In this document: piece by piece, positions 25,514 to 36,500 of the stretch
Layout: each line of letters opens with the position of its first letter
Position numbering within the stretch: position 1 is the first letter of the stretch
Source: a phage
Sequence record: PZ386969.1
Length of the DNA: 64,000 nucleotides
Reading direction: 5' to 3' (one strand)
The notes under the pieces: generated by a model
The model's database searches: none
The model's input: the letters and a program-made list of their open reading frames with translations, nothing else
What the model was told of the DNA's origin: nothing
Position numbers and translations under genes: made by a program

Positions 25514-26707
25514 ATGAACAAGACCATCTTCGATACCCTTTCCCTCGACCGCAACCTGGTCCATTGGGAAGATTATCTCTACAAGCACACCCCGTGCGAA
25601 CTTGTCGTCAACCCCGAAACCAACCAGCAGGTCTGGTTCAAGCGTGAAGATTATTTTGCGCCGCTGTCTAACTATGCCAACGCCAAGCAGGGCATCAATG
25701 GCAGCAAACTCCGCCAGGCCATCTGGTTGATGGTTGAGCACCTCAAGGCCGGAGGCTCCCCTGACATCATCCATGGTACTGTCGTTGGTAGTCCGCAGTC
25801 CCCTATGGCGACAGCAGTCTCTCGGCACTTCGGCGGCAAGACAACCACTGTACTCGGAGCGACCAAACCCACCACCTGTATGAACCACGACATGGTGGCA
25901 ATGTCAGCCTGGTTTGGTAGTGAGTTCAACTTCGTCGGCTCGGGTTACAACAGCACGATCCAGCCGCGCTGTAAGAAGTTGATCGAACAACAGAATCCAA
26001 AGGCGTATTATCTGGAGTATGGTATCACCCTCGACCATACAACCCACTCCCCTGAGCGCATTGCTGGGTTCCATATGCTGGGTGGCGAGCAGGTTGCCAA
26101 CATCCCTGACCATATTACCGATCTGATTATCCCTGCTGGATCCTGCAACTCGTGCACAAGCATCCTGACCGGGCTGGCAATGCATCCGAAGCCTAATCTG
26201 AAGCGTGTGTATCTGATCGGCATCGGTCCGAACCGCCTGGACTTCATTGAGAGCCGTCTGCGCATCATCGGCAAACATGCCAATCTACCGCACATTGTCG
26301 ACTTCACCCGTCGCTATCACGACAACCCAGACTATGTACACGGCAAGAAGGAGCTTCAGCATGCCTCTAAGAGCGTTTCGCTGGCTGGCCTCCTGAGTGG
26401 TATCAGGCAGAAGGAAGAGCCAGAGGTCGTGCTTCCTCGCTTTGAGGTACACCATTGGGATCTTCATACCACTAATTGGGTTCGTTATAATGACCTGATG
26501 GAATATCAGTGGGGTGATATTGAGTTGCATCCTCGCTATGAAGGCAAGGTCATGACCTGGGTTCAGCAACACAAGCCCGAGTTGCTCAATGAGAACACTC
26601 TGTTCTGGATTGTGGGTAGCAAGCCGTACATTGAGCCAATGAAGGCTGCATGCCCTGAACTGGCTATCCCTGAAACAGTTCCTGTAAACGACTTCACCCC
26701 TTCCTGA
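25514..26707 (+). CDS. PLP-dependent enzyme, fold-type II (ACC-deaminase/Trp-synthase-beta-like), putative
   Basis: N-terminal FKREDYF...NAKQGINGSKLRQ resembles KRED...GGNKxRK lysine motif of the family; AGGAG ribosome site. Confidence 0.45.
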   Translation: MNKTIFDTLSLDRNLVHWEDYLYKHTPCELVVNPETNQQVWFKREDYFAPLSNYANAKQGINGSKLRQAIWLMVEHLKAGGSPDIIHGTVVGSPQSPMATAVSRHFGGKTTTVLGATKPTTCMNHDMVAMSAWFGSEFNFVGSGYNSTIQPRCKKLIEQQNPKAYYLEYGITLDHTTHSPERIAGFHMLGGEQVANIPDHITDLIIPAGSCNSCTSILTGLAMHPKPNLKRVYLIGIGPNRLDFIESRLRIIGKHANLPHIVDFTRRYHDNPDYVHGKKELQHASKSVSLAGLLSGIRQKEEPEVVLPRFEVHHWDLHTTNWVRYNDLMEYQWGDIELHPRYEGKVMTWVQQHKPELLNENTLFWIVGSKPYIEPMKAACPELAIPETVPVNDFTPS

Positions 26708-26712
26708 TCCAT

Positions 26713-26747
26713 CCTAAATACCCCATACAAACCAGTGTGGGGTATTT
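26713..26747 (+). promoter_or_regulatory. late-promoter-like CTAAATACCCC with inverted copy TGGGGTATTT abutting the ATG
   Basis: CTAAATACCCCATACAAACCAGTGTGGGGTATTT-ATG. Confidence 0.5.
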
Positions 26748-27212
26748 ATGAAAACCTTTCTTGAATATCTTAAAGAGGCGTCTGAGGCTGAACCCAAGTT
26801 CGATAACATGCGCCTCTTTCACGGCTCCAACGTAGAATTCGATGTCTTCGACTTTGAGCGCTTCGGTCAGACCGACTGTGGTACGATGGGACCTGGGTTC
26901 TATCTGACAGGCAACGAAGAAGAGGCACAGCGCTATGCAGAGAATGCCGTCCGCTACCGCCAGAGTGGTGAACCCCATGTTCTGGTGTTTAACGTCAGTG
27001 TTAAGAAGCCCCTCGAACTTGACTCTAACAATGTCTCGGCCTGGGAAGACGCTATGCGTGAACTTGGTATCGAACCGGGTAAGATCCATGAGAACGCCGC
27101 CGAGCTAATTGCTCAGGGCTATGACTCCACCATCGTGCTGGACCGCTTTGGGTTGCCTATGGTACGTGAGATCGTCCTGTACAAACCAGGCCTGGCAGTG
27201 CGGGAAGCCTAA
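26748..27212 (+). CDS. PARP-like (H-Y-E type) ADP-ribosyltransferase catalytic domain, putative (154 aa)
   Basis: H25-G-S, G-P-G-F-Y52-L-T, Y63 (11 residues after Y52), E141 in R-E-I-V-L-Y; spacing resembles PARP catalytic core (HGS / GxGIYFA / Y+11 / EYIVY). Confidence 0.45.
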   Translation: MKTFLEYLKEASEAEPKFDNMRLFHGSNVEFDVFDFERFGQTDCGTMGPGFYLTGNEEEAQRYAENAVRYRQSGEPHVLVFNVSVKKPLELDSNNVSAWEDAMRELGIEPGKIHENAAELIAQGYDSTIVLDRFGLPMVREIVLYKPGLAVREA

Positions 27213-34704: not shown

Positions 34705-34904
34705 TCATGAAACGGTTGTCTAATTATCTGTTGTTCATTGGTCTGGTTATGGCAGCCGTTTCAATGTGTACTGCCCTAGCCTATCATTTCACCCCTCTGG
34801 ACTTAACAACCTCAGAGAAGTTGAACGTGACTGTGATGTACTGTATTGGCGCGGTGATGTCTATCGGCGCTGCTGGTTACAAAATATTCAAGGAACCAAA
34901 ATGA
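34701..34904 (+). CDS. small membrane protein (67 aa)
   Basis: ORF track; hydrophobic helices; ATGA overlap with next gene. Confidence 0.4.
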   Translation: MIMKRLSNYLLFIGLVMAAVSMCTALAYHFTPLDLTTSEKLNVTVMYCIGAVMSIGAAGYKIFKEPK

Positions 34905-35278
34905 AAATTCAAATCCCTCGCGATGCTGTGGCTGTTGCGATTGACTACACCGGAAACGCCAAGCACATTACTGCCGTGCGCCTGATTCCTGAAAAGAACT
35001 GCGTCATCCCTCAGTTCCAGCTGAATGCCAATCCGTCGTCCAAAGACTTCGGTAAGTGGTTGCAGGCTGCTCCGTTCCGTACCCAGACGAATGCCCAGAT
35101 GTTCATCTCGGGTAAGACCCACACTGTAGCCCGTCTTTGGTTTGTGACCGCCGACCGCCGCTTCATCGATATGTGGGAACGTCCGATGGGGTTCGTGAAG
35201 CCGGAAGATATTCAGCTGGCTCCTGAGCCTGAAGCTGTGGCTCCTGAAGAGGAAGCGAAAGATGCATCATTTATCTAA
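34901..35278 (+). CDS. hypothetical protein (125 aa)
   Basis: ATG 34901 with AGGAACC upstream; track ORF 34766 trimmed. Confidence 0.45.
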   Translation: MKIQIPRDAVAVAIDYTGNAKHITAVRLIPEKNCVIPQFQLNANPSSKDFGKWLQAAPFRTQTNAQMFISGKTHTVARLWFVTADRRFIDMWERPMGFVKPEDIQLAPEPEAVAPEEEAKDASFI

Positions 35279-36500
35279 AATGCCGACGGGTTATACGCCT
35301 CCGGCTGAATGGAAGTACCCGATTGACCTGGCTGTTGATTATCGCAAGCCTGAGAATCGCATGTACCTGCTCAAGGCTTGGGTGGAGGCGCTGTCCTACA
35401 CAGAAGAGCACAACCAGCAGATGCGTCTGATGGACTATGCGATCGAAGTCACTGAAGGCATCAGCCTCGAACAGAAAGTCGAGCGCAAGATCTGGATGGC
35501 ATTCCTGTGGGGTTGTTGCTATAACGCCGTCGGACCGTGGACGATCTACAGTGAGTTCCCTGTGCCGCCTCAGTCTAAGGAAGAGATGCAGCGCTTCTCT
35601 GATTGGTATAATCTGAACTTTGAACGCATGCGATTCGATACCGACTGTCGCTACCGCAAGTCCAAGATGATTCCGTGTGTTCAGTCCTATATTGACTGGC
35701 TGGCTGGCCGTACTCAATATGACGCTTTCCGTGGGATGTTGGTGTGCATCGATAAGACAGAACAATTCACCCAGCTGTGGGACACGGCGATGTCCTGGAA
35801 ATACTTCGGTCGCCTGAGCGCCTGGAACTTCCTGGAAGCCCTGAACATGGTCTTCGGGAACGAATACACCATTGACGTCCCTGGCTTCATGCTGCGTGAT
35901 CGTGATGGAAGCGAGTCCAACCGTAATGGCGCGGCGTTCTTGTCCAACCGTGACGATTGGGTGACTAAACACGGGAAGAAAAAGATCAACGGTTGTCCTA
36001 TCACGGATGAAGAGTGTGACATCCTTGAGGCCGACCTTGAGCAGGCGTTCCAGGATTGTGTGGCTGAGTTCGGGCACCTGACGTTCATCAACCGCCTGAA
36101 CTTTGAAACCTCCGGTGCTTGTTGGCTGAAGAAATTCTTCCGACTGAAGAATACCCGTTACATCGGGTGGGACGCAGAGCGTACCTGGGATGAGATAGAC
36201 TACATGGAACGCGTCTGGCCTGAATACTCCTGCGCAGCGCTCTGGGAAGCCCGTTCGCTCTGGCTGCCAGATACCCTGTTATGTGAAAAGGCTCCTGCAG
36301 GGCACGTTCCAGGCGTCCAGAAGTGGAAGATGCCTGTATTCTTTGAGACTGGTGTTCCTCTGCATATCTGGCACCTGCAAAAGGGTACGCGCTGGGAACC
36401 ATCCGAGGTATGTACGAACCTGAAGATGCCTGTGCGCAAGGTTGAGGACAAGCAGCCGCGCAAACATAGCGTCAACCTCATGACACTCTTGAAACGCTGA
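35262..36500 (+). CDS. hypothetical protein (412 aa); possible DNA-modification enzyme by context
   Basis: ORF track; GAGGAAG ribosome site; sits with kinase, HAD and PLP genes beside the polymerase; no motif confirmed. Confidence 0.3.
   Translation: MHHLSKMPTGYTPPAEWKYPIDLAVDYRKPENRMYLLKAWVEALSYTEEHNQQMRLMDYAIEVTEGISLEQKVERKIWMAFLWGCCYNAVGPWTIYSEFPVPPQSKEEMQRFSDWYNLNFERMRFDTDCRYRKSKMIPCVQSYIDWLAGRTQYDAFRGMLVCIDKTEQFTQLWDTAMSWKYFGRLSAWNFLEALNMVFGNEYTIDVPGFMLRDRDGSESNRNGAAFLSNRDDWVTKHGKKKINGCPITDEECDILEADLEQAFQDCVAEFGHLTFINRLNFETSGACWLKKFFRLKNTRYIGWDAERTWDEIDYMERVWPEYSCAALWEARSLWLPDTLLCEKAPAGHVPGVQKWKMPVFFETGVPLHIWHLQKGTRWEPSEVCTNLKMPVRKVEDKQPRKHSVNLMTLLKR

Follow-up and report, generated by a model that had tools for sequence, protein, structure and literature searches.

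What does the gene cluster around the DNA polymerase of this phage do to its DNA, and which base would result? The window, that is the whole stretch of DNA analyzed, comprises 64,000 nucleotides of phage sequence record PZ386969.1. At positions 25,514–36,500, genes for a pyridoxal phosphate (PLP) enzyme, a HAD-like hydrolase, a Walker A kinase and a 412-residue protein accompany the gene of a family-B polymerase (PolB). A preliminary description of the window had assigned these genes, together with those of a MazG-like pyrophosphohydrolase and a dCMP deaminase located farther along, to a DNA base-hypermodification module. The list of open reading frames (ORFs), Pfam and PHROGs place every ORF named there at its coordinates and in the protein class claimed for it. 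The window very probably carries the post-replicative half of the thymidine hypermodification pathway of the type found in Salmonella phage ViI, the product of which is 5-(2-aminoethoxy)methyl-2'-deoxyuridine (5-NeOmdU). This is the best explanation because two of the proteins match the HMUD2 and ADDT families, three are 81–92% identical to ViI enzymes that have been assayed, and the catalytic residues are kept.

Judged by similarity to sequenced relatives, the window is DNA of an Agtrevirus-like phage of the family Ackermannviridae. The 11-kb region of the cluster shares 96.5% DNA identity with Escherichia phage AV101 (Ackermannviridae, Aglimvirinae). The whole window is collinear with ViI in an ORF-by-ORF tblastn comparison, with matches that run from ~111 kb of the circular ViI record through its start to ~24 kb. 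The 11-kb stretch is present in 284 phage records, all of them ViI-like phages of enterobacteria and their relatives, and at least 80% of it is covered in 193 of the 284. In Vibrio phage D493, the order PLP enzyme ... PolB, HAD-like protein, small ORF, (homing endonuclease), kinase, transferase is kept, and the PLP enzyme, HAD-like protein and transferase are 52%, 30% and 49% identical to those of the window. The clustering is not due to chance, because the stretch is common to so many records and its order persists in Vibrio phages at 30–52% protein identity.

Kinase, transferase and decarboxylase

The three predicted modification enzymes and the polymerase are encoded as follows.

25514–26707, + strand: PLP-dependent decarboxylase, orthologue of ViI gp226 (BLASTP, PLP lysine, phrog_3650, weak PALP match)
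29305–32304, + strand: family-B (T4 gp43-like) DNA polymerase, 999 residues, uninterrupted (Pfam DNA_pol_B_exo1 and DNA_pol_B; phrog_262)
33799–34704, + strand: 5-hydroxymethyl-2'-deoxyuridine (5-hmdU) DNA kinase of the HMUD2 type, orthologue of ViI gp243 (Pfam HMUD2, BLASTP, Walker A)
35262–36500, + strand: amino acid:DNA transferase, aGPT-Pplase clade 2, orthologue of ViI gp247 (Pfam ADDT, BLASTP, Glu/Cys alignment)

The 301-residue P-loop kinase matches the Pfam family HMUD2 (PF18747, '5-hmdU DNA kinase 2') over model positions 1–298 of 298, with an E value of 6.3e-151 and a score of 502.1 bits against a curated cut-off of 25 bits. The BLASTP alignment with ViI gp243 (YP_004327565) is essentially full length and yields 81% identity, and the Walker A motif GTSGTGKGT at residues 9–17 is identical in the two proteins. 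Purified ViI gp243 carries out ATP-dependent phosphorylation of 5-hmdU in DNA (PMC8989533). By orthology, the window kinase would likewise use ATP to phosphorylate 5-hmdU in DNA, yielding 5-PmdU.

The 412-residue protein, an unknown in the preliminary description, is an ADDT protein of the aGPT-Pplase family. Its match to Pfam ADDT (PF18724, 'amino acid:DNA transferase', formerly aGPT-Pplase2) has an E value of 4.5e-60 and a score of 203.7 bits (curated cut-off 26.2 bits), and BLASTP gives 89% identity over 412 residues to ViI gp247 (YP_004327568). Homologues occur in 379 phage records. In an alignment of six sequences, among them M6 gp51, M6 gp55 and homologues from a mycobacteriophage and a Vibrio phage, Glu282 and Cys287 do not vary; both residues and their surroundings are identical in the window transferase and ViI gp247. 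They correspond to the essential Glu/Cys pair of ViI gp247 and M6 gp51, where mutation of the conserved Cys or of the neighboring Glu abolished activity (PMC8989533). Given the 89% identity to gp247, the window enzyme is predicted to exchange the phosphate of 5-PmdU for the side-chain oxygen of L-serine.

Many phage records label the orthologues of these proteins 'guanylate kinase', 'threonine dehydratase' or 'hypothetical protein', and phrog_4409 is named guanylate kinase, as would be expected of ordinary metabolic enzymes. There is next to no probability that the genes are of this kind. The HMUD2 and ADDT matches are full length (E ~1e-151 and 1e-60), the orthologous ViI proteins have been purified and act on DNA (PMC8989533), and NCBIfam contains no model that matches any of the four core proteins, metabolic-enzyme models included. 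Profiles, ViI orthology and published enzymology together refute the metabolic assignment.

The 397-residue PLP enzyme is 92% identical over 394 residues to ViI gp226 (YP_004327553), occupies the same genomic position and matches phrog_3650 over its full length. Lys65 falls in an invariant alignment column with ViI K92 and M6 gp52 K36, which are the proposed PLP (aldimine) lysines, and ViI gp226 yielded a Phyre2 match to a template of the tryptophan synthase beta type (PMC8989533). By orthology to gp226, the window enzyme is expected to convert 5-O-serinyl-thymidine in DNA to 5-NeOmdU. The three ViI accession numbers given above agree with Table 1 of PMC8989533 for the purified gp226, gp243 and gp247.

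The leader of the decarboxylase gene is also conserved. A stable hairpin at 25460–25510, directly 5' of the ATG, has a folding energy of -23.1 kcal/mol and a z score of -5.1 relative to shuffled sequences, and the AGGAG Shine–Dalgarno sequence sits in its 3' arm. The 70 nucleotides preceding the ATG are nearly invariant in the window, RPN242 and ViI despite diverged coding DNA. The sole difference in the stem is a C-to-T change that retains a G-U pair; because it alters the 5' arm, a search for the exact hairpin pattern returned no match, whereas alignment and folding show it. The hairpin may control translation of the decarboxylase.

Predicted pathway and product

On the published model, a ThyA-like dUMP hydroxymethylase, the gene of which lies outside the window, would convert dUMP to 5-hmdUMP, and further enzymes encoded outside the window would phosphorylate it to 5-hmdUTP. 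The family-B polymerase (29305–32304), which is 86% identical to ViI Vi01_190, is presumed to incorporate 5-hmdUTP in place of T (PMC5889632). Once 5-hmdU is part of the polymer, the kinase (33799–34704) would transfer a phosphate from ATP to its 5-hydroxymethyl group, with 5-PmdU and ADP as products. In the transferase, Cys287 would attack C6 of the base to form a covalent Cys–C6 adduct, with Glu282 as the acid; the phosphate would leave and an exocyclic methylene would form. Addition of the hydroxyl of free L-serine to this methylene would yield 5-O-serinyl-thymidine, from which the PLP enzyme (25514–26707), with Lys65 as the Schiff-base residue, would remove the CO2 of the serine moiety to leave 5-NeOmdU. 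The ViI reactions were reconstituted in vitro with purified gp243 or gp67, gp247 and gp226 (PMC8989533). The profiles and the ViI orthology thus bear out the post-replicative logic of the preliminary description, namely a 5-hmdU DNA kinase combined with a PLP enzyme and a pyrophosphorylase-type enzyme. The same description held that the chemistry could not be read from sequence; it is readable from orthology, as attachment of serine via its side-chain oxygen and subsequent decarboxylation.

The expected product in this phage, by comparison with its relatives, is 5-NeOmdU. Measurements put the 301-Da nucleoside at ~40% of T in ViI, CBA6, CBA120 and the ViI-like Vibrio phage 1.255.O (PMC5889632) and at ~16% of T in the Taipeivirus phiHS2 (bioRxiv 10.64898/2026.05.19.726188). 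Ag3 and LIMEstone were counted among the ViI-like phages and predicted to contain the same base (Lee 2018, PMC5889632), and a 2024 review describes the hypermodification genes as conserved across the whole family Ackermannviridae (PMC11721090). Phage 1.255.O was absent among the tblastn matches listed, and its kinship rests on the label 'ViI-like' in the paper.

The same enzyme scaffold could in principle produce a chemically different modification here, with another amino acid or with an adduct that is not decarboxylated. The nucleophiles used by clade 2 aGPT-Pplases do vary, being glycine in M6 and PaMx11, serine in ViI and putrescine in PhiW-14 (PMC8989533). Of the 412 positions of the window transferase, 45 differ from ViI gp247, including a cluster at residues 161–175, and no published direct chemistry was found for Agtrevirus. 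Nonetheless, such a departure is very improbable, because the two enzymes that determine specificity, the transferase and the decarboxylase, are 89% and 92% identical to those of ViI. The identity extends to Glu282, Cys287 and their surroundings, and 5-NeOmdU has been measured in Kuttervirus, Taipeivirus and a ViI-like Vibrio phage. Transferase homologues of Klebsiella phages (e.g., Menlow) are ~85% and those of Vibrio phages ~49% identical to that of the window, in records that are not tied by sequence to phiHS2 or 1.255.O. The prediction for Ag3 and LIMEstone points in the same direction. The suggestion in the preliminary description that the modification may be a new variant is unlikely for the same reason, given a published 5-NeOmdU pathway of ViI and the Ackermannviridae with enzymes at 81–92% protein identity (PMC8989533).

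Several points weigh against the assignment of a ViI-type pathway. Of the three proteins for which the preliminary description proposed profile searches, the kinase and the transferase score above the cut-offs of HMUD2 and ADDT, but the decarboxylase matches Pfam PALP, the fold-type II PLP family, with an E value of 3.4e-7 and a score of 30.3 bits, which falls short of the gathering score of 35. No PDB chain was matched by sequence at E ≤ 1 for the decarboxylase, the transferase or the kinase. Compared with ViI gp226 and RPN242 gp169, the decarboxylase gene has an 81-nucleotide in-frame deletion (27 codons) after codon 2 (window 25514–25525). The corresponding 27-residue N-terminal segment is probably dispensable, because it varies between ViI and RPN242 and has no counterpart in M6 gp52. 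No published nucleoside analysis was found for any Agtrevirus phage, and the AV101 paper describes the DNA of that phage as HMdU-substituted. Finally, the completeness of the pathway is taken from relatives, because the hydroxymethylase, the second kinase and aGPT-Pplase1 are not in the window.

With ViI and AV101 proteins as tblastn queries, none of ThyA-like protein, gp67, gp160, deoxynucleoside monophosphate kinase and dUTPase was found in the 64-kb window (best E 0.087). The dUMP hydroxymethylase that the preliminary description expected elsewhere in the genome is thus not in the window, but it is present in AV101. There, the dUTPase, dnk-like, ThyA-like and gp67-like genes occupy 51.5–54.4 kb, ~10 kb or more past the position of the window end, with the ThyA-like (75% identical to ViI) and gp67-like (88%) genes at 52.7–54.4 kb. 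The ViI gene for gp160 (aGPT-Pplase1) is located at 87.4–88.7 kb.

In relatives where it was measured, 5-NeOmdU replaces ~16–40% of T and blocks many restriction endonucleases. Hypermodified thymidine shields phage DNA from many restriction enzymes and also affects the sequencing, cloning and therapeutic use of such phages. Recognition of the module implies that the DNA of this phage is probably partly substituted with 5-NeOmdU, which is useful to those who work with it. The finding is correct but already known, as the enzymes, their order of action and the conservation across Ackermannviridae have been published. It adds no new biology and rediscovers a family-wide system that is already annotated in close relatives such as RPN242.

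Accessory genes and the surrounding region

The neighboring and more distant features considered together with the three enzymes are listed below with their predicted identities.

27710–27730, no strand assigned: bidirectional terminator-like hairpin closing the unit 24788–27707 (consensus scan, pattern match only)
32358–32708, + strand: DUF7292 protein, conserved neighbor (Pfam DUF7292, E 6e-53; 91% identity to ViI)
32705–33484, + strand: HAD-superfamily protein resembling NT5C-type 5'(3')-deoxyribonucleotidases, orthologue of ViI orf00239 (Pfam NT5C, HAD motifs)
33494–33799, + strand: DUF7254 protein, conserved neighbor (Pfam DUF7254, E 1.8e-52)
34701–35278, + strand: two small conserved ORFs between kinase and transferase (ORF list)
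36731–36766, + strand: strong terminator-like hairpin in which a T run follows the 16-bp stem (consensus scan, pattern match only)
49020–49601, + strand: MazG-like NTP pyrophosphohydrolase, orthologue of ViI orf00011 (phrog_1247 and motif)
58005/58008–58514, + strand: dCMP deaminase, orthologue of ViI orf00033 (Pfam dCMP_cyt_deam_1; phrog_174)

The HAD-like protein (259 residues) matches Pfam NT5C (PF06941) with 35.8 bits, compared with a cut-off of 24.8, and is 76% identical to ViI Vi01_194. HAD motifs I (DVDLT, residues 23–27) and IV (LIDDNP, residues 188–193) are both kept in the Vibrio phage homologue. The MazG-like protein matches phrog_1247 (E 1.6e-35) and is 50.5% identical to ViI Vi01_011; it has no Pfam or NCBIfam match, and the EExxE...ExxD motif is readable as EEICE at residues 32–36 and EVAD at 53–56. 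The dCMP deaminase matches Pfam dCMP_cyt_deam_1 (PF00383) with an E value of 4.3e-16 and 59.1 bits (cut-off 25), contains the zinc motifs HAE (residues 73–75) and PCPEC (residues 100–104), and is 64% identical to ViI Vi01_030. The deaminase would supply dUMP, and we infer that the three proteins probably shape the pyrimidine pools. As pyrimidine-pool control, their place in a hypermodification module is plausible.

Of the module as originally proposed, the kinase, the transferase and the decarboxylase stand as members, whereas the HAD-like protein, the MazG-like protein and the dCMP deaminase qualify only as conserved neighbors or pool genes. The latter three may be general pool genes in the manner of T4, in which case the module consists of the three enzymes and its proximity to the polymerase reflects inherited gene order rather than an operon; the balance for and against this view is even. 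In lysates, five ViI proteins (gp67, gp160, gp226, gp243 and gp247) were enough to form 5-NeOmdU on 5-hmdU DNA, and the individual steps were obtained with three purified ViI enzymes (PMC5889632, PMC8989533); the three accessory genes were not required. Neither of the two ViI papers links a deoxyribonucleotidase, MazG or dCMP deaminase to the pathway, and M6 has a different hydrolase, of the HD superfamily, beside its ThyA homologue. The HAD-like gene occurs in 357 phage records compared with 379 for the transferase, with near-equal counts per host genus. These phages form a single lineage, and the co-occurrence is therefore inseparable from common descent. On the other side, the HAD-like gene keeps its place after PolB and before the kinase even in Vibrio phages whose protein is just 30% identical, and in the window it overlaps its upstream neighbor, the DUF7292 gene, by 4 nucleotides in a packed same-strand run. 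A nucleotidase directed at dTMP or dUMP together with an NTP pyrophosphatase would also make sense for biasing the pools toward 5-hmdUTP, an argument drawn from established knowledge of the 5-hmdU Bacillus phages.

It is unlikely that the conserved elements (the NT5C-like phosphatase, DUF7292, DUF7254, the two small ORFs and the decarboxylase-leader hairpin) set the fraction of T made into 5-NeOmdU or help to convert the remaining 5-hmdU to thymidine, or that the Agtrevirus modification differs from 5-NeOmdU.

Three minus-strand ORFs (27745–29243) divide the genes into two units on the + strand. The first unit (24788–27707) comprises a 218-residue unknown ORF, the decarboxylase, an ART-PolyVal protein and a 152-residue unknown ORF. 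The second unit extends from PolB (29305) to the transferase (36500), and the hairpin at 36731–36766, 3' of the transferase, closes this packed run. Its gene boundaries overlap or nearly touch (32705/32708, 33799/33799, 34701/34704 and 35262/35278), such that the DUF7254 gene ends on the base with which the kinase start codon begins (33799). The first of the two small ORFs spans 34701–34904 and the second ends at 35278. The true start of the second is probably near 34900, and phrog_4163 matches residues 46–167 of the 170-residue reading 34766–35278. ViI Vi01_197 and Vi01_198 hold the same positions.

The ART-PolyVal protein (26748–27212; ADP-ribosyltransferase of polyvalent proteins), encoded next 3' of the decarboxylase, matches its Pfam family above the cut-off (E 2.7e-10) and is 64% identical to ViI Vi01_183. 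In the window, PolB is intact and DUF7254 is followed by the kinase with no SegD-like homing endonuclease in between. In RPN242, ZQ1, A221, PC3/PH4 and AV101, PolB is split and/or an endonuclease is inserted at the PolB or pre-kinase sites, and these sites appear to be hot spots for gain and loss of homing endonucleases.

Elsewhere in the window, the tail-spike block (8741–16652) has a G+C content of 0.42–0.43, compared with ~0.50 elsewhere, and matches ViI in the N-terminal parts only (46–77% identity, partial lengths); it is the known variable host-range cassette of the Ackermannviridae. Four + strand tRNA genes at 23445–24418 (Met-CAT, Asn-GTT, Tyr-GTA and Ser-GCT; ARAGORN and Rfam agree) are followed on the 3' side by a terminator-like hairpin at 24635–24655. 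The rIIA homologue (41075–43831) is just 54% identical to ViI rIIA and the stretch after it maps poorly to ViI, whereas the flanking replication and structural genes are 80–95% identical. Judged from this drop in identity, the rIIA region is locally fast-evolving or exchanged. A link to 7-deazaguanine, prompted by the QueC-like queuosine biosynthesis gene of ViI (Vi01_023), was rejected, as tblastn located no equivalent of that gene in the window (E > 1). The adjoining Vi01_025 interval likewise lacks a matching ORF in the window, and the YunG-like protein (55996–56424) is retained (window 55716–56424).

Comparison with known systems

The closest characterized system is that of ViI (Kuttervirus; Lee et al. 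2018 PNAS, Lee et al. 2021 NAR), to whose gp243, gp247 and gp226 the window proteins are orthologous at 81%, 89% and 92% identity. The order PLP enzyme ... PolB, DUF7292, HAD-like protein, DUF7254, kinase, two small ORFs, transferase is common to both, as are the Walker A motif, the Glu/Cys pair and the PLP lysine. However, ViI belongs to the Cvivirinae and the window is Agtrevirus-like, of the Aglimvirinae; the window decarboxylase is without the 27 N-terminal residues, and the ViI QueC-like gene was not found in the window. The Agtrevirus phages AV101, Ag3, RPN242 and fGh-Ecl02 share 96–97% DNA identity with the window across the whole 11-kb region. In RPN242, the orthologues are already annotated as 'P-loop nucleotide kinase 2' and 'alpha-glutamyl/putrescinyl thymine pyrophosphorylase clade 2'. 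RPN242 and several others differ from the window in their split PolB and/or inserted endonuclease.

The 5-NedU pathway of Pseudomonas phage M6 employs the kinase gp54, the glycine:DNA transferase gp51, the radical-SAM isomerase gp53 and the PLP decarboxylase gp52. It shares with the window the logic of kinase, amino acid:DNA transferase and PLP decarboxylase, and the Glu/Cys pair and PLP lysine are common to both, whereas protein identity is only 18–25%. In M6, glycine is joined via its nitrogen and a radical-SAM isomerase, absent in the window, is needed; the M6 product has a C–C linkage, compared with the ether expected here (PMC8989533). The alpha-putrescinylthymine system of PhiW-14 and the alpha-glutamylthymine system of SP10 resemble the predicted pathway in the incorporation of 5-hmdU during replication, its activation on the polymer by 5-HMUDK and substitution by an aGPT-Pplase (PMC5889632, PMC8989533). 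They differ in their nucleophiles, putrescine and glutamate, respectively, and belong to phage lineages unrelated to that of the window; for PhiW-14, no PLP decarboxylation step has been reported.

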